Positions 10,570-57,516 of a DNA stretch of 64,000 bases are shown here, piece after piece. Numbering within the stretch: the stretch's first letter is position 1; the number at the start of each line of letters is the position of its first letter. The stretch lies in the IMG/VR virus record IMGVR_UViG_3300036818_000105, positions 1 through 64,000 of that record; one strand, 5' to 3'. The notes below the pieces were generated by a model that saw only the letters and a list, made by a program, of their open reading frames with translations, did not search any database and was not told the DNA's origin. Position numbers and translations under genes: made by a program. The stretch comes from a virus.

Positions 10570-11060
10570 CGTTTCCGACCCCCTCCGGCCGCCACCCTTC
10601 TTACGGTAAGAGGGGGCGGCGTTGCCCAGCGCAGTGAAAGTACCCCCCGGCGGCCGGGGTCCTGGGCCTGTTGTGCCGGGAGATGGTCTGGCATGCGGGA
10701 AACCTTTACTCTTGTTGCAGGTTATTACCGGTTAGCTACTGTTCGGTCACGACCGTACAACGGTGACCGTGCCTTTCTTCACTTCCCCTTCACTTCTCCT
10801 TCACGTCCCCCGCCAGCCCCCCGGACATCCTCCGCCCCCGGGGCCCCGGCCGCGAGACCCCCGTTCAGGGGACATTCCCGTAACGGCCTGGCCGCCAGCG
10901 CCGGGACGGGGCCGGGGGTGACAGCCCCGTCCCGGCCGGTCAGTGGAAGTCCCAGATGGTGACCTGCGACGCGCGCAGCTCACTGAACTGCCAGCCGCGA
11001 GCCCACGGCGGCAGCACGTTCCCGTTCGCGAAGCTGTTCCCTCTCGCGTGACTATTGCCC

Positions 11061-47484: not shown

Positions 47485-48078
47485 ATGACCACGCAAACAC
47501 CCCGCAGCCGCGGCGGCAACGGCAAGTTCACCCGCGCCGCCGAGAGCCGCAAGCGCGACTGCCGTGCCGCCGAGCTCCACGGGCAGGGCTGGTCCTACCA
47601 GCGGATCGCCGACGAGCTCGGGTTCGCGTCCAAGGGCCACGCGCACAACGGCGTGATGCGCGCCTACGCCGACATGTGCACCGAGGAGGCGGGGCAGGCC
47701 CGGCAGGCCGACCTTGACCGCATCGACCGGCTCATCGAGCAGGCGTGGCAGGTGATGCTGACCCCGCACCTGACCGTGAACAACGGCAAGGTCATCCGCC
47801 ACTTCGCGGGCTTCGAGCGCGACGAGGACGGCATCGAGCGCCTCGACATGGACGGCAAGCCGATCCCGGTCTTCGTGGACGTGCTCGACGACGGCCCGAG
47901 GCTCGCCGCGGTCGGCGTCATCAAGGGGCTGCTCGAGCGCCGGGCGAGGATCTTCGGCTACGACGCCCCCGCCAAGTCCCGCGTCGAGGTGATCACGGCC
48001 GACATGGTCGAGTCGCAGATCGCCGACCTCGAGTCCCAACTGGCCCGCAATGACCCCGCTGGTCCAGGCACCCCCTGA
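47485..48078 (+). CDS. terS: terminase small subunit
   Basis: HTH GWSYQRIADELGF, DDGPRLAAV, RRARIFGYDAP; overlaps the terL start. Confidence 0.8.
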   Translation: MTTQTPRSRGGNGKFTRAAESRKRDCRAAELHGQGWSYQRIADELGFASKGHAHNGVMRAYADMCTEEAGQARQADLDRIDRLIEQAWQVMLTPHLTVNNGKVIRHFAGFERDEDGIERLDMDGKPIPVFVDVLDDGPRLAAVGVIKGLLERRARIFGYDAPAKSRVEVITADMVESQIADLESQLARNDPAGPGTP

Positions 48079-50818
48079 CCGCCTGCGGTACCTGCTGGAG
48101 CTCCAGCGCCGCGCCGCGAGGATCAAGCACGGGATCACCAGGTACTACGACGACCCGGTCGGCTTCGCGCGTGACTGCATCGACTGGGGCGACAGCGAGG
48201 GCCTGACCGAGTACCAGGAGGAGATCCTCGACGGGATTCCCCGCCGCAAGCGCGTCGCGGTACGAGGCCCCCACGGGCTCGGCAAGGCGCTAGAATTGAG
48301 TGTGCGCATACCCACCCCTTCCGGCTGGTCGACCATCGGCGGCCTGCGCGTCGGCGACGAGGTTTTCGACGAGCACGGCAAGCCCTGCCGGGTGACGGGC
48401 AAGTCGCCCGTATGGCACGGCGACACGTACGAAGTCGAGTTTGCGGACAAGACCGTCATCACCGCTCACGGCGAGCACGAGTGGAACGCAGTCGACGTCT
48501 ACCACCGCCCGAAGACACCGAAGCCAGACCGGCGGCCTGTGCCCGTTTCGGACTGGCGCGACCACTGGGTATCGACTAGGCGCGTCACTACCGCGTACAT
48601 GGCGGAGCACATGCTCTCGCCTGGCGGTCAGCTTCGGTGGCGCATCCCGGCAGCACGCCCGCTGGAGCTACGTGCCGCCGACCTGCCGGTTGACCCGTAC
48701 ATCCTTGGGTACTGGCTCGGTGACGGATCGTCGAGGGGCGCCCAGATAACGATCTGCGCCAGCGACTGGCCGAGCCTGCAAGAGCGCCTGAAGGATGCCG
48801 GGTATCACCATGGCGAGCCCCGGCCGCATAAGGCCAGCCCGTCAACCTTCTCAGTGGGCGTCTCCACGCAGCCGGTGCGCCGTGGCGGCGGCCAGCATGA
48901 CACGCTGGCGCTCAGGCTCCGCAATCTCGGCGTCCTCGGCAATAAGCACATCCCGGTGATCTACCAGCGGGCATCCGCGGCGCAGCGCATGGAGGTTGTG
49001 CGCGGACTGTGGGACTCGGACGGCTACCGGCAGGCTGGCGGCAGCGACGAGATCACGCTCACCTGCAAGCCGCTAGCGGATGACGTAGCTGAGCTGCTGC
49101 GGTCTCTCGGCCTGGTGGTCCGGGTAAGCGAAAGCGACTCCAAGATTGACGGGCGCGTGGTCGGCCGCAGGTGGCGCATCGCCGCCCGGTTCGACTTCAA
49201 CCCCTACCGTCTTGCGCGCTACGACTGGGAGCCCCGCGGCCGGCAGTCCTCTCGCCACACCCAGCGGACGATCACGGATATCCGCAGGGTGGCCGACAAG
49301 CCGACCCAGTGCATCGAGGTGGACTCGCCGTCGCACCTGTACCTCGCTGGCGACTCAATGATCCCGACGCACAACTCCGGGATAGCGGCCATCGCCGTCC
49401 ACTGGTTCGCCCTGACGCGGGACGCGGCCGGCGTCGACTGGAAGATCCCTGCGACCGCCGGGTCATGGCACCAGCTGACCCAGTACCTGTTCCCTGAGAT
49501 CCACAAGTGGGCCGGGCGCCTGCGATGGGACAAGGTGCGGGACGGCCGCCCGTTCTCCCGCGCGCACGAGCTCCAGAACCTGAACCTGCGCCTGGCGCAC
49601 GGCTCCGCCTTCGCGGGGGCATCGGCGAACGCGGCGCTGATCGAGGGCGCGCACGCCGACTCGCTGCTGTTCCTGTTCGACGAGGGAAAGGCCATCCCGG
49701 CCGCCACGTTCGACGCATGTGAGGGCGCCCTCGGCGGCACGGGCGAGGCCTTCGCCCTGATCCTGTCAACGCCGGGGGCACCGTCAGGGCGCTTCTACGA
49801 CATCTGCGCGCGCAAGCCCGGCTACGAGGACTGGCACCCTGTCCACGTCACCCTCGAGCGCGCGATCGCCGCCGGGCGCATCAGCGAGGAGTGGGCTGAG
49901 CAGCGCGCCCGTCAGTGGGGCACCGAGTCGGCGATCTACCAGAACCGCGTCCTGGGCGAGTTCTACGCCAGTGACGAGGACTCGGTTATCCCCCTCGCGT
50001 GGGCGGAGGCGGCGGTTGCCCGCTGGCACGCCTGGGACGAGGCCGGGCGTCCGGAACCGGGCAGGCCGCGCACGGTTGGCGTGGACGTGGCCCGCACCGG
50101 CCAGGACCGCACGGTCCTCGCCCTCCGCAACGGCCCGGTGATCACGGAGCTGCGCCGGTCGGTGAAGGAAGACACGATGCAGACCACCGGCCGCGTGAAG
50201 GGCATCCTTGACGCCGACGACTCGGTTACCGCCGTGGTCGACGTGATCGGCATCGGCGCAGGCGTCGTTGACCGCCTCCGCGAGCAGCACGCCCGGGTGC
50301 TGGCTTTCAACGCCTCCCGCGGGTCGAAGGCGAAGGACAGCACGAGGGAGTTCGGCTTCGCGAACCGCCGGAGTGAGGCGTGGTGGACGATGAGGCAGGC
50401 GCTGGACCCGTCGAGCGACCCGGATATCTGCTTCCCTGACGACGAGATGCTGCTCGGTGACCTCTCGGCACCGCAGTGGAAAGTCACGTCATCCGGAAGG
50501 ATCGCGGTGGAGACTAAAGAGGAGATCGCCAAGCGCCTAGGCCGGTCAACTGACGACGGTGACGCGGTAATTCAGGCTTTCGTCCCGCACCTCGGCGAGT
50601 CTTCGCCGGGCACCGTCCGCAAGTGGGCCGGGTCCGTCGAGCTCGACAGCATGGGCGTGAGCGAGGAAACGAAGGCTCACCGCCGCATGAGGGAGATCGC
50701 GGGCAAGGCGGCCGAGGGACTTGAGGACGCGCCGTGGGATCTCGACGGATTCTCGCCGCAGGACGGCGATGACAGACCGCAGGGCGGGCGACGGGGCAAC
50801 GTCCGGACGTGGCAGTAG
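48050..50818 (+). CDS. terL: terminase large subunit with intein
   Basis: VAVRGPHGLGK/S Walker A, FLFDEG Walker B, STPG, RVLGEF, GVDVAR.G.D, VDVIGIGAGV.DRL, RS.DDGDA. Confidence 0.95.
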   Translation: MTPLVQAPPDRLRYLLELQRRAARIKHGITRYYDDPVGFARDCIDWGDSEGLTEYQEEILDGIPRRKRVAVRGPHGLGKALELSVRIPTPSGWSTIGGLRVGDEVFDEHGKPCRVTGKSPVWHGDTYEVEFADKTVITAHGEHEWNAVDVYHRPKTPKPDRRPVPVSDWRDHWVSTRRVTTAYMAEHMLSPGGQLRWRIPAARPLELRAADLPVDPYILGYWLGDGSSRGAQITICASDWPSLQERLKDAGYHHGEPRPHKASPSTFSVGVSTQPVRRGGGQHDTLALRLRNLGVLGNKHIPVIYQRASAAQRMEVVRGLWDSDGYRQAGGSDEITLTCKPLADDVAELLRSLGLVVRVSESDSKIDGRVVGRRWRIAARFDFNPYRLARYDWEPRGRQSSRHTQRTITDIRRVADKPTQCIEVDSPSHLYLAGDSMIPTHNSGIAAIAVHWFALTRDAAGVDWKIPATAGSWHQLTQYLFPEIHKWAGRLRWDKVRDGRPFSRAHELQNLNLRLAHGSAFAGASANAALIEGAHADSLLFLFDEGKAIPAATFDACEGALGGTGEAFALILSTPGAPSGRFYDICARKPGYEDWHPVHVTLERAIAAGRISEEWAEQRARQWGTESAIYQNRVLGEFYASDEDSVIPLAWAEAAVARWHAWDEAGRPEPGRPRTVGVDVARTGQDRTVLALRNGPVITELRRSVKEDTMQTTGRVKGILDADDSVTAVVDVIGIGAGVVDRLREQHARVLAFNASRGSKAKDSTREFGFANRRSEAWWTMRQALDPSSDPDICFPDDEMLLGDLSAPQWKVTSSGRIAVETKEEIAKRLGRSTDDGDAVIQAFVPHLGESSPGTVRKWAGSVELDSMGVSEETKAHRRMREIAGKAAEGLEDAPWDLDGFSPQDGDDRPQGGRRGNVRTWQ
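48287..49375 (+). mobile_element. 363-aa class 3 intein with LAGLIDADG endonuclease
   Basis: Starts with Ala (ALELSVRIPTP), ends THN/S; LGYWLGDG and RGLWDSDG; W-C-T triad (HEW, QCI, PTHN). Confidence 0.92.
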
Positions 50819-52225: not shown

Positions 52226-52471
52226 ATGACCGACGCTAGCCCGGTTGCCATCCAGCGAGCCATCGCGGCCAACATCCGAGCCGAACGCGCCCGCGCCCGG
52301 CTCTCTCAGCAGGCCGTGGCAGACGCCATGCAGAAGCGCGGGTTCGCCTACTGGCGCCAGCAGACAACCGGAGCGACCGAACGCGGCGAGCGCCGGATAA
52401 CCGCCGATGAACTGACCGCACTCGCCGCCGTATTCGGCACCGCGCCGGAGACGCTCTGGCGGATGCCGTGA
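52226..52471 (+). CDS. XRE HTH regulator coupled to tnpB
   Basis: IAANIRAERARARLSQQAVA..ERGERRITADEL..LA..F; TAGAAT 6 nt upstream. Confidence 0.9.
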   Translation: MTDASPVAIQRAIAANIRAERARARLSQQAVADAMQKRGFAYWRQQTTGATERGERRITADELTALAAVFGTAPETLWRMP

Positions 52472-53658
52472 GGCGGGCCTACAAGTTCCTCGCATACCCG
52501 ACGCGACCCCAGGAGGGCCGCTCGGGCGCGCTGCTGCGCGACCACTGCGACCTGTACGACGCCGCGCTCGAGGAACGCCGCGAGGCGTGGCGGATGCGGA
52601 AAGCTCCGGTGTCCTACGGCATGCAGTCTGCCCAGCTCAAGGAGATCCGAGCGGCCGACCCGGACGGGCAGGGGAGGCACTCGTTCACCGCCCAGCAGCA
52701 AACCCTGCGCAGGCTCAACGACGCGTTCGTTATGTTCTACAAGCGGTGCAAGATCCCGGGCAAGAAGCCGGGCTACCCGAGGTTCAAGCCGTACGCCCGG
52801 TTCGATCAGGTCCGGTTCGTCGCCGGAGACGGTGCGAAGTGGACCCCGGCGAACGGCATTGGCTGGGCACGCGCCTACTTCCAGGCGGTCGGCTCGGTCA
52901 AGGTGAAGCAGCACCGGCCGGTGACGGGCACCGTCAAGGCGCTCCAACTCAAGCGGGAGCACCGCCGCTGGTACGTCATCGTCATCACCGAAACTGAGCC
53001 GGTGCCGCTGCCCCCGGCGGGCCGTGAAGTCGGCGTAGACGTGGGGGTGGTGCGGTTCCTGACCACCTCGGACGGCGGGATCGTGGCCAATCCGCGTTTC
53101 TTCGCCGCGTCGGCCGGGGTGATCGCGGACTTGCAGCGCCGCATGAACCGCGCCAGGCCGGGTTCGGGGAACCGCAAGCGGATCAGGCGCGCCCTGGCCC
53201 GGGAGCACCGCAAGGTCAGGAACTCCCGCCGCGACTTCCACCACAAGACCGCGCGAATTCTCATTGACGAGTGTGACGTGATCGCCCTGGAAGACCTCAA
53301 CACGGAAGGGATGACCAGGCGTCCCAAACCGAAGCCCGACCCGGACAAGCCGGGCGAGCACCTCCCGAACGGGGCCGCCTCCAAGGCCGGCCTGAACAAG
53401 TCGATACGCGACGCGGGCTGGGCACAGTTCATGAGCATCATCGTCGGCAAGGCTGAGAGCGCCGGCCGGCGAGTGATCCTGGTGGACCCGCGGAACACGA
53501 GCATCGACTGTCACCAGTGCGGGCGAAGATGCGAGCGCCCGCAGCAGGACACGGTTATCTGCCCCGCGCACGGCGCGATGGACGCCGACGTGAACGGGGC
53601 CAGAAACATCGCCAGCAGGGCCGGGCTGGGCTCTGGTCAGGCCGCGCGAGCGGCCTGA
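52468..53658 (+). CDS. tnpB: TnpB RNA-guided endonuclease, copy 2
   Basis: RAYKFLAYPT, GYPRFK, RuvC-I GVDVG, RuvC-II LEDL, TSIDCHQC..CPAH, RuvC-III DVNGARN. Confidence 0.96.
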   Translation: MRRAYKFLAYPTRPQEGRSGALLRDHCDLYDAALEERREAWRMRKAPVSYGMQSAQLKEIRAADPDGQGRHSFTAQQQTLRRLNDAFVMFYKRCKIPGKKPGYPRFKPYARFDQVRFVAGDGAKWTPANGIGWARAYFQAVGSVKVKQHRPVTGTVKALQLKREHRRWYVIVITETEPVPLPPAGREVGVDVGVVRFLTTSDGGIVANPRFFAASAGVIADLQRRMNRARPGSGNRKRIRRALAREHRKVRNSRRDFHHKTARILIDECDVIALEDLNTEGMTRRPKPKPDPDKPGEHLPNGAASKAGLNKSIRDAGWAQFMSIIVGKAESAGRRVILVDPRNTSIDCHQCGRRCERPQQDTVICPAHGAMDADVNGARNIASRAGLGSGQAARAA

Positions 53659-53710
53659 GAAGGTGGCGGAGCGATCCGCCATAGCAGTCACCCAGTTTTC
53701 CAGATACGTC
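53580..53710 (+). ncRNA. predicted omegaRNA for TnpB copy 2 (5' end approximate; guide from 53692)
   Basis: Hairpins CAGGCCGC..GCGGCCTG and TGGCGGA..TCCGCCA, then GCAGTCAC right-end motif (TCAC 53688-53691). Confidence 0.72.
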
Positions 53711-53846: not shown

Positions 53847-53875
53847 TAGCGGCGGAGAGGAGGTGATGCTTGGGT

Positions 53876-55492
53876 ATGGTCGACACTCGCTCCGCAAATG
53901 TCGTCGCCTTCCCCGACCTCGCGCCGAAGGGCTCTCGCGGCCCCAGCGGCAAGCGGGCCCTTTTGGGTCCAGAGGTAGGGACGTCGTTCGATTACGGACA
54001 GCGCTTGTTCGCCTACTATTAGTTAAGGCGAAGGAGATGTGTTCGACTACGGCTTAGCGAATTTTCCGCTCGTGACTACAAAACGATGTTGTCCCGTAAC
54101 GGAATGTGCGCGGCCATCGAGCAGGTACTCACTCTCCCGATCAGGGGCGCCCCGTACACCATCGAGCCCGCCAAGGGTGACCAGGGCGAGGCCGAGTTCG
54201 TGACCAGCGTTCTCATGACAGCCGACGAGGACGGCGGCATGAAAACACCTATCAGCACGCTGGTCGGCCAGATTACGAGCGCGCAGATTTTCCGTCGCGC
54301 CTTCTTCGAACGTACTTACAAGGTTCGCGAATCCGACGGCAAGATCATTTACGACAAGGTGGCCTTTCGCCCCCCCGCGACCTGTCAGGCCAGGTACAAC
54401 GACCGTACGGGCGAGCCGAACGGGTTCCGTCAGCAGGTCTGGTTGTTCGGCGGGAACTTGATGCTCAACCGCACTCAGAAGGTTCCCGGCTACGTCGACA
54501 TCCCGAAAATCAGGAGCTACATATACACCCACGGGAAACACAGGGAACCTCTCACTGGTGTCAGTGAGATGGAAACGGCCTACTGGTGCTACCAGACCCA
54601 GGCGAAGCTAGCCTACCTATGGCTCAGCTTTCTCGAGGGAATGGCGATGCAGCGCCTCGTCGTCTACGGCAACGACCAGCCGGAGGCATCCCAGCGAGCG
54701 GATGACATCTCCCAGCTGCGCGGTTCCGGCATTGTCGGCCTTATCCACCCGATCGACGGGCAGAAGTCGTTCGAGGCCCTCCCCACGGCCGCGGACGCGG
54801 GCGCCCAGTTCGCGGCGTGCATGACGTACCTGGAGAACTGGGCAGCCAGCAGCGTCCTCGCCGGCTTCCTGCAGCTTTCCGGCGCGGCGGCGAAGGGCAC
54901 CCGGGCGGGCGGCGGCGCCAGTGCCGGCTCCTACGGCATGAGCGAGGACCAGAGCTCGTACTACCTGGCCTCCCGTGAGGCGGCGGCAACGGAGATAGCG
55001 GACAGTATCTCCCATGACCTGATCCGCCCCCTGGTGACCCTGAACTTCGGCGCGGACGCGGCGTTCCCGAAGTGGAAGTTCGGCCCGTTGCAGGAGGCCA
55101 TGACGGCCGTACTTTTCACCATGTTCGGGCAGCTAGCCGCCGCCCCCAAATTGAACCTGCCCCTCGCGTTCGTGGACCTCCTCACCGAGCGGATGGCGGT
55201 GATCCTGAACCTGGACGCGGACCAGATTCACGAGTCGCTGGTGAATACCGCGTCGCAGCGGGCGGAGGCGCTGGCGGGCAATCCCCCGCCCGGCATACCC
55301 CCGGAGGCCGCGGCGGGACTGGGGCAGTTGCAGGGGCTGGCGCAGGCGGGGACGTCGATCGCGCAGCAGGCGATAGCGAGGAACGGCGGGCCGCCGACGC
55401 CGCCGAAGGTGACCATGCCGCCGGCCGGGCCGCCCGCGCCCCCGCCCAAGCCGCCGATGGCCGGGGGACTCGCGGGGGCGGCGGCGCAGTGA
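53876..55492 (+). CDS. portal protein (DUF935/Mu gp29-like); 5' part interrupted, continuous ORF 54086-55492
   Basis: IEQVLTLPIR, AFFE, FRP..TC, GFRQ, P..G.S, SVLAGFL.L, GSY.MS.DQS, LIRPLV.LNFG..FP..KFGPL; follows terL. Confidence 0.85.
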
Positions 55493-57036: not shown

Positions 57037-57516
57037 GTGAGCGAGAAGAGGCGAACCGAGAACGTGCTGTCCGTCCGGCTTGACGACGAGACCTCGGCCG
57101 AGCTTAAGTGGGCGGCCGGCGAGTCCGGCGTCAGCGCGTCTGAGCTAGCCCGCCGCGGCCTTCGCCCGGTGCTGTCCTATATCCGCGCTGAGTGGTACGA
57201 GAAGCACGGCAGCGAGGACGACTGGGGTGAGGTGGTTGCCGCCGGGCCGGTGCAGCCGCGCAAGCTCGACGCCTCGTTCGGGGTGCGCCTCGCTTACGAG
57301 CAGGTGCTTGAGGTCGCGCAGGCCGCCGAGGCATGCGGCGTGACGATCTCCGCGTACCTGCGGGAAGCCGGGCTTGCCCTTGCCGCGGCCCAGCGGGCAG
57401 GCGGCACGGCCAGGTGCTCTCACCTGAGCATCGGCGGCGCGGTCAGCGCGGAGTGCGGCACTTGCGGCTCGCTGCCGGTTGCCCTCACGGTGCACGCCCC
57501 GGCGAGGCGACCGTGA
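57037..57516 (+). CDS. tandem ribbon-helix-helix protein
   Basis: SVRLDDE..AA..GVSASELAR and GVRL..E..V..AAE..GVTISAYLRE. Confidence 0.75.
   Translation: MSEKRRTENVLSVRLDDETSAELKWAAGESGVSASELARRGLRPVLSYIRAEWYEKHGSEDDWGEVVAAGPVQPRKLDASFGVRLAYEQVLEVAQAAEACGVTISAYLREAGLALAAAQRAGGTARCSHLSIGGAVSAECGTCGSLPVALTVHAPARRP

Follow-up and report, generated by a model that had tools for sequence, protein, structure and literature searches.

Translational bypassing is among the rarest departures from standard decoding, and in print it is confined to T4 gene 60 and its homologues, one yeast mitochondrion and three terminase genes of Streptomyces phages and prophages. Here we describe a portal gene of an uncultured high-GC soil-type phage (IMG/VR record IMGVR_UViG_3300036818_000105) whose 5' region is divided by two short gaps, and which comparative sequence data support as a candidate for a double translational bypass, as proposed in an earlier note on this DNA. 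The window, by which we mean the whole stretch of 64,000 nucleotides (nt) analysed, is the first part of a contig of 124,491 nt, and positions given without a locus name are those of the window or its contig.

The closest described systems are actinophage terminase genes, for which the consulted passages of Antonov et al. 2023 (PMC10732093) report non-coding blocks of 7–10 nt led by UUA in 3 of 100 genes (phiHau3, StrepC.1 and a prophage of S. catenulae); the earlier note had correctly pointed to UUA-linked bypasses in Streptomyces phages. The same passages, in which Smith et al. 2013 is cited for the phiHau3 terminase g6/g7/g8, describe a full-length phiHau3 terminase product in Streptomyces, a junction peptide identified by mass spectrometry in E. 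coli when UAA replaced UUA, and recoding that was not reduced by a +1-frame stop inside a phiHau3-type gap.

In T4 gene 60, as described in the portions used here of PMC10732093 and of the Atkins review (PMC5009743), the peptidyl-tRNA is retained between a take-off and a landing codon, UAG directly follows the take-off codon, and the 50-nt gap comes with identical take-off and landing codons (GGA/GGA), a stem-loop at the take-off site and a signal from the nascent peptide. The mitochondrial bypassing elements (byps) of the yeast Magnusiomyces capitatus occur as many inserts per gene family and up to several per gene, are mobile-like or fast-evolving, and tolerate take-off/landing matches at two of three bases, according to the same portions of that review (PMC5009743); the portal gaps described below resemble them in number per family and per gene and in their mobile-like or fast-evolving behaviour. 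Unlike the portal gaps, byps have no rare-codon trigger of the UUA type. They are reportedly 27–55 nt long, GC-rich and mitochondrial, as attributed to Lang et al. in 2014. Hops at hungry codons and stop codons on synthetic E. coli sequences, in which a slow A-site codon is followed by re-pairing a few bases downstream on a matching triplet, are said to have been described by Weiss et al. in 1987 and by Gallant et al. in 2003; such synthetic hops belong to low-level, artificial or starved systems, whereas the portal design is fixed in an essential natural gene.

Layout of the portal gene and its homologues

All portal features lie on the + strand. A Shine-Dalgarno-like (SD-like) run, GAGGAGG (53857–53863), stands 6 nt ahead of TTG 53870 (12 nt ahead of ATG 53876) and was assigned to the true portal start; both candidate starts are in the portal frame, and ATG 53876 corresponds to the start of those relatives that begin with MVDT. 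The first portal segment (53870/53876–54019), identified from the list of open reading frames (ORFs) and its translation, holds the N-terminal 48–50 codons and matches the FPDL...GT(S/Q)FD.GQRLFAYY of contiguous homologues. Its ORF stops at TAG 54020–54022; both the strong SD and the ORF end reported in the earlier note were found again. Then follow coding gap 1, TAGTTAA (54020–54026, 7 nt), a second segment of nine codons in the +1 frame, GEGDVFDYG (54027–54053), which equals the homologue consensus, coding gap 2, TTAGC (54054–54058, 5 nt), and a third segment of 477 codons and a stop (54059–55492), which carries the Portal_Mu domain (Pfam PF06074). Neither gap has a counterpart in contiguous homologues. 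Gap 1 closes the incoming frame by TAG and the outgoing +1 frame by TAA (54024–54026), directly before GGC 54027, and because both frames are closed a +1 slip cannot pass it. The first frame from GAA 54059 reads EFSARDYKTMLSRNG and is continuous with the 468-amino-acid (aa) ORF listed from ATG 54086. Deleting TAGTTAA and then TTAGC thus joins the three pieces in the frames that the earlier note had claimed. The two gaps together measure 7 + 5 = 12 nt, and the segment 1 ORF and the portal ORF share a frame with TAG 54020 as their sole separator.

The portal ORF matches Pfam PF06074 (Portal_Mu, Mu gp29-like) with an E-value of 1.5e-25 and 90.7 bits, the curated cut-off being 23.9. With the translation lengthened at its 5' side, the profile already matches ahead of ATG 54086; from ATG 54086 the match spans profile positions 7–321 of 336. 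This codon (54086–54088), the mechanical start of the 468-aa ORF in the ORF list, corresponds to an internal Met conserved in all contiguous homologues (K.M), and no GGAG-like run occurs in the 20 nt before it (54066–54085), in agreement with the missing SD noted earlier. The window gene is a Mu gp29-type portal in three pieces. The third-position GC content drops near the gaps (53876–54085), with values of 0.77, 0.67 and 0.44 in the three pieces as compared with 0.70–0.93 in 30-codon bins over the remaining portal. The contig as a whole has 70.7% GC and its ends overlap by 127 nt (1–127 and 124365–124491), the last 100 nt recurring at position 28 of the start, which indicates a complete genome assembled as a circle.

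A database search returned 374 portal homologues, 26 of which were fetched. Nine of these are contiguous complete forms of 528–557 aa with the motif ...FPDL...GT(Q/S)FD.GQRLFAYYG(E/D)GDVFDYGE(W/F)..RD.K.M..., unbroken at both junctions; with P0032, which starts at GPE and is likewise unbroken at both, the total comes to 10 of 26. The alignment that the earlier note had proposed reads, as it predicted, QRLFAYY-GEGDVFDYG-E(F/W) in contiguous homologues (~520–557 aa), with no extra residues at either junction. Thirteen further close relatives (81–91% identity) are called short, starting at the internal Met or later; two, P0011 and P0021, are called long (544–549 aa) with the middle piece in the wrong frame, and the gene call of P0004 starts directly after a gap. 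No contiguous homologue starts near MLSRNG, a possibility raised in the earlier note; the short forms of 461–479 aa are gene calls on interrupted relatives. Annotation is affected accordingly, gene callers either shortening such portals to these lengths or giving them a wrong-frame middle. When 47 contiguous forms are aligned, many columns of the N-terminal stretch are invariant. The nearest cultured relatives are Streptomyces phage portal proteins at 35–37% identity (11 of 13 matching records), and the matches in cultured phages carry a portal protein annotation.

Gap series and selection in related portal genes

We fetched 46 loci from IMG/VR and 39 from metagenomes, some contigs being common to both collections, and read the portal 5' region in three frames together with a frameshift-aware alignment. 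The latter produced spurious skips in the unconserved first ~15 residues, and skips were counted from the conserved core onward. Seventy-five sequences were retained, the window included; those left out were L058 and L084, whose 5' end is cut off, and L042, L044, L065, L075, L077, L081, L082 and L085, whose 5' region is uncovered or unanchored. The gaps of sites J and K were read separately, the site at codon 142/143 of the contiguous form was included in the catalogue, and an extra in-frame ATG codon in L029, L073 and L028 was treated as a plain Met insertion and kept out of the gap count.

Forty-eight of the 75 sequences are interrupted by one to three gaps, in 17 configurations, and 27 have no gap. 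The catalogue holds 29 distinct gaps of 2–15 nt at 10 sites, with lengths that leave a remainder of 1, 2 or 0 on division by 3 in 14, 11 and 4 cases; for 13 of the 17 configurations the summed gap length is not divisible by 3. TTA opens 26 of the 29 gaps and a stop codon (TAG or TGA) the other three. The earlier note had pointed to near-matches between take-off and landing triplets in the window (TAT to TAA, GGC to AGC), and these fit a family-wide pattern: the final gap triplet agrees with the codon before the gap at two or more of three bases in 25 of 29 gaps (6 perfect, 19 at 2/3; the other 4 at 1/3), as compared with a mean of 9.7 and a maximum of 19 in a control of 20,000 shuffles of the pairings. 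Examples, written with hyphens between the preceding codon, the gap and the following codon, are ACC-TTAGACC-TCG, TTC-TTAGAACGCTAATTC-GAT, GGC-TTAACAACCTCGGC-GAG and TAC-TTAT-GGA. Of the four gaps whose length preserves the frame, two, TTATAAACC (L001) and TTAGAACGCTAATTC (L007, L014 and L055), each contain a stop and so cannot be passed by a frameshift.

At the site of gap 2, relatives carry TTA-led versions of 11–14 nt, and one Logan contig of a public run carries a version of 19 nt; another Logan contig reads ACT-TTACT-TCG. Similarly built gaps, including several identical ones, turn up in contigs of many separate assemblies. Since the same or similar gaps recur in independently assembled contigs, the interruption is a trait of the family and does not stem from misassembly. 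One clade in a tree of the portal body has all of its 15 rows interrupted, the window among them, and the sister of the window, L002, has gaps at the same two sites. Two more interrupted sequences, L027 and L028, are each paired with a sister that has no gap (L083 and L029, respectively), a contrast that shows gain or loss of gaps in at least two further lineages. No common nascent-peptide motif was found before the gap sites.

A 10-nt TTA-led gap, TTACCTGGTC or TTACCCGGTC, was also observed at a RAFF/EK site ~140 codons into the portal (L036 3222–3233, L043/L080 and L065), so that gaps are not confined to the 5' end. An eleventh gap site was seen in L085 (~1460–1510; same contig as L044), where an 8-nt TTA-led gap, CTT-TTACGCCC-TGG, lies 11 codons past an intein junction (...THN/C) and has a landing triplet that matches at one base of three. 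The sole other frame breaks seen were plain deletions lacking TTA, one of a few nt in L075 (~1498–1503) and one of ~80 nt in L083 (~1800); these are probably assembly errors or dead copies and represent the background for breaks of the non-TTA kind.

Substitutions were then compared in the frame of each piece. Summed over pairs of interrupted sequences, the ratio of non-synonymous to synonymous polymorphism (pN/pS) was 0.25, and it was 0.26 for the codons that neither sequence has in the frame of the main ORF, with 612, 470 and 1524 differences at the three codon positions. Within segment 2, all four differences between the window and L008, and all five between the window and L036, are silent third-position changes in the hop frame, while the read-on frame across the middle piece contains stops in L036 and L053. 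These substitution patterns show that each piece is under purifying selection in the frame proper to it.

TTA is a very rare codon in this phage, accounting for 17 of 26,312 codons in crudely called ORFs, and as a triplet it is found at 219 places on the + strand of the whole genome (124,491 nt); given this rarity, its position at the opening of 26 of 29 gaps exceeds chance. Twenty-six of 28 loci lack any in-frame TTA in the remainder of the portal ORF, and the two exceptions are each broken by an additional gap that starts with TTA. The genome contains no tRNA genes, and hence encodes no suppressor tRNA.

Proposed decoding of the gaps

We consider it likely, from the comparative data and the parallel with phiHau3, that the window holds one portal gene in three pieces and that a full-length portal of ~534 aa is made by slow-codon-triggered bypass of both gaps. 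Ribosomes would start at 53870 or 53876 and, with tRNA-Tyr on the take-off codon TAT 54017–54019, would meet the slow A-site codon UAG 54020–54022. The fraction of ribosomes not terminating there would keep the peptidyl-tRNA, slide by 7 nt, re-pair on the landing triplet TAA 54024–54026 (2/3 match to TAT) and decode again from GGC 54027. Nine codons on, tRNA-Gly on the take-off codon GGC 54051–54053 would meet the near-unused Leu codon UUA 54054–54056, and a 5-nt slide with re-pairing on AGC 54056–54058 (2/3 match to GGC) would allow decoding to resume from GAA 54059. The stop-holding in-frame gaps, the gap sums that are not multiples of 3 and the selection on each piece lead us to prefer hopping to the ALTERNATIVES, and the ribosomal mechanism itself we infer by analogy with the phiHau3 terminase.

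Several likenesses underlie this analogy. Like the window portal, the phiHau3 terminase is an essential packaging gene of a high-GC actinophage; gaps are short in both (7–10 nt in the terminases, 5 and 7 nt here), the junction residues are contiguous in homologues, and more than one gap per gene is possible. Gaps of the phiHau3 type open with UUA after the take-off codon, as does gap 2 of the window, whereas gap 1 opens with TAG and then TTA. A stop as trigger was engineered as UAA in E. coli in the terminase work excerpted in PMC10732093, whereas UAG or UGA leads 3 of 29 portal gaps naturally; the interrupted share is 3 of 100 terminase genes in those excerpts and 48 of 75 portal relatives, at 10 sites, here. 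The passages used of PMC5009743 describe a KGWG nascent-peptide motif for phiHau3, in contrast to the portal gap sites, which share none. Host limitation for UUA is part of the bldA biology of Streptomyces; here, TTA makes up 17 of 26,312 codons in a genome of 70.7% GC with no tRNA genes, and Streptomyces phage portals are only 35–37% identical. Unlike the phiHau3 case, the gene is a portal and the window landing triplets match at 2/3 only.

With T4 gene 60, window gap 1 has in common a UAG directly after the take-off codon and, in the proposed scheme, take-off and landing with retained peptidyl-tRNA. In contrast to the long gap, identical codons and stem-loop of gene 60, the portal gaps measure 2–15 nt, the window take-off and landing triplets are not identical and no significant fold was found, so that in gap size, codon match and stem-loop the window gaps differ from a gene 60-type bypass element. 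They also differ from sites of programmed −1/+1 frameshifting, which combine a slippery site (X XXY YYZ or a shifty stop) with two open frames: no slippery heptamer is present in the window gaps, and gap 1 is closed in both frames.

We came across no published account of such gaps in a portal gene in a literature search whose scope excluded subscription-only articles and supplements. What appears to be new is the design of the phiHau3 terminase in another essential gene, with a naturally stop-led gap and a rich comparative series. Its 29 differently built gaps at 10 sites amount to a large natural mutational series, from which rules can be read by comparison: a slow A-site codon, landing at two of three bases and free gap length.

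A number of observations weigh against the proposed double bypass. Portal bypass is a proposal from sequence comparison. Both window landing triplets match at two bases of three, 4 of the 29 family gaps match at one, and gaps at one site may share a single ancestral insertion, so that the 29 are not independent and the significance given by the shuffle is overstated. The rarity of TTA was counted on phage codons, and a limiting host supply of tRNA-Leu(UAA) would be a further assumption. A UAG in the A site invites termination and may keep the yield low. Local RNA structure near the gaps is unremarkable (z = −1.59; 17 of 200 shuffles fold as well), and a −1 shift, at the cost of an added Leu-Ser, would be another way across gap 2. 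AlphaFold2 modelling of a contiguous homologue with 47 sequences gave a mean predicted local distance difference test score (pLDDT) of 57.6, with the N-terminus below 50, which is too poor to show that the N-terminus is structurally needed. None of the indexed public sequencing runs contained more than 9% of the genome's sampled words (largest share 0.09). A contig from an RNA library covers 53857–54003 only, ending before the gaps, and is uninformative on expression.

Were ATG 54086 the working start, the portal would be truncated or split, the upstream ORF would be an unused remnant or encode a separate small peptide, and no recoding would take place. This short start is what gene callers pick in the window, as they do in 13 of the 26 relatives fetched, and PF06074 is nearly complete from 54086 (7–321 of 336). 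We nevertheless regard this as unlikely, since the upstream pieces are all under purifying selection in shifted frames, the nine-codon middle piece has no usable start, no SD precedes a Met that is internal in contiguous homologues, and the N-terminal 60 residues of these homologues are among their most conserved columns. The shared frame of the upstream ORF and the portal ORF, with TAG alone between them, also allows a compensated double frameshift in which the TAG is read through and an Arg/Cys-rich stretch replaces GEGDVFDYG; the L008 group has no stop there at all, and its genes are called continuous at 544–549 aa (P0011, P0021). Such a garbled middle is hard to reconcile with middle-piece differences that are silent in the hop frame only (4/4 and 5/5), with the stops in the read-on frame of L036 and L053, with gap sums that are not multiples of 3 in 13 of 17 configurations and with a genome that encodes no suppressor tRNA, and we give it very little credence.

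The two gaps might also be passed in different ways, gap 1 by hopping and gap 2 by a −1 frameshift, the slip on GGC bringing in an additional Leu-Ser (CTT AGC), in which case some gaps of the family would be frameshift sites. The −1 frame is open across gap 2, and 15 nt ahead of GGC 54051 there is an SD-like GAAGGAG; the distance at which SD-like runs stimulate −1 shifts is 9–14 nt in the passages used of PMC5009743. This mixed scheme seems distinctly improbable given the absence of a slippery heptamer and of extra residues at DYG/E in homologues; moreover, the other gaps at this site, 11–14 nt in length, have GGC, TGC or AGC as their last triplet, a feature consistent with landing but not with slipping. 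That the allele is defective, or rescued by co-infecting relatives, gains some colour from L075 and L083, whose frame-breaking deletions lacking TTA indicate that broken portals do occur in assemblies. Those two breaks are deletions, unlike the 29 insertions, and one clade is interrupted in all 15 of its rows with the portal still under selection, in the window's case in a complete genome on a circular-type contig. Removal of the gaps at the RNA level by editing or splicing would spare the protein equally well; we know of no mechanism that excises RNA stretches of 2–15 nt defined only by a TTA start, and we rate a defective allele or RNA removal as very improbable. An assembly or sequencing artefact in the window contig is hardly credible: although no public run contained more than 0.09 of the genome's sampled words, gaps of the same design recur in many separate assemblies and in Logan contigs of other runs. 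Bypassing of both gaps accordingly remains our preferred account of the window portal.

Neighbouring genes and a possible origin of the gaps

The earlier note had also suggested that the inserts might be nuclease-escape scars, and this part of it found support in relatives only. By tblastn, 6 of the 17 interrupted configurations (L002, the L005 group, the L027 group, L053, L063/L074 and L047/L078) and none of the uninterrupted loci have an HNH endonuclease-like ORF immediately before the portal; no HNH gene of that type was found in the window genome by tblastn at E <= 1e-5. The upstream ORF of L027 matches the PHROG HNH endonuclease families phrog_1492 and phrog_826, and that of L002 also has a NUMOD3 motif. 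L027 and its gap-free sister L083 are near-identical downstream of the gapped region, and upstream of it L027 has a divergent mosaic tract, in which its HNH-like ORF is located. We also observed that A/T-ending silent changes cluster around the gaps of L027 and L028 relative to their gap-free sisters.

T4 gene 60 and mobA provide the precedent of endonuclease homing with co-conversion and target-site immunity, and a mobA homing-endonuclease cassette at gene 60 was reportedly described by Bonocora et al. The pattern of HNH genes and gaps, an association seen in relatives, fits homing of this kind. As the gene 60 insert is linked to a selfish endonuclease, so an HNH-like ORF lies upstream in portal relatives; the window differs in having TnpB only and no HNH.

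The TnpB belongs to an insertion sequence (IS)-type element directly upstream of the portal start (52226–53710, + strand), recognized by Pfam and PHROG transposase matches, which is context and lies outside the recoding. It comprises, all on the + strand, a helix-turn-helix (HTH) gene (52226–52471; HTH_31), the TnpB gene (52468–53658; Pfam OrfB_IS605 and Cas12f1-like_TNB) and a presumed TnpB guide (53692–53710; 19 nt after the presumed right end of the element). The guide stretch is identical at 17 of 19 nt to the reverse complement of portal 54823–54841, which suggests that TnpB may be aimed at a variant portal allele. In L045, of the L008 group, TnpB-like sequence (window 52500–53700) was seen between the upstream ORF and the portal, and L008 is without it; a related IS is thus present at the same junction in another lineage. 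Also upstream of the portal are a 3-kb island and the large terminase gene. The large terminase itself (48050–50818, 922 aa; PHROG terminase large subunit) contains a LAGLIDADG-type intein at approximately residues 100–450, and this intein resembles inteins in the portal genes of L044, L081, L082 and L085.

Searches for other nucleases and other gaps were negative within their scope. Pfam and PHROG scans of the small ORFs between terminase and portal in L004, L008, L043, L028 and L029 and of the window island revealed no nuclease except the window TnpB. A search for nuclease guides aimed at the gapped region, by 13-mers shared between portal 5' regions and sequence elsewhere, gave chance-level 13–16-mers only. 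A genome-wide search for TTA-led gaps based on third-position GC and frame heuristics, which was non-systematic and confounded by opposite-strand shadow ORFs, gave no convincing case in the two candidates inspected, at 10601 (+) and 77586 (−), neither of which is gap-like. An all-against-all tblastn of locus ORFs for frame junctions in flanking genes was noisy, and among the matches listed junctions with at least 10 queries occurred in the portal only.

It is possible, though we would not call it probable, that the gaps entered or persisted as changes that blunt the target of a selfish nuclease at the terminase-portal junction, and that they survive only because they can be hopped. More tentatively still, the micro-gaps led by TTA or a stop might be read not as mere tolerated damage but as what an arms race has left behind where terminase and portal meet in high-GC actinophages. 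In that reading, selfish nucleases (free-standing HNH enzymes in relatives; here TnpB with a portal-matching guide, and LAGLIDADG inteins) would cut the conserved portal DNA of rivals, alleles would gain immunity through short inserts and silent changes, and only hoppable inserts would last in an essential gene. If this were true, bypass-competent gaps would be a general and fast-evolving way to alter the DNA of an essential gene with its protein unchanged, and as a side effect portal output would be tied to the host supply of tRNA-Leu(UAA) or release factor. The homing-endonuclease link seen in relatives would bring the T4 and Streptomyces cases together within a single evolutionary account.

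Downstream of the portal, in the head region, an ORF at 57037–57516 has a NikA-like/ribbon-helix-helix match of the mobilisation-protein type.

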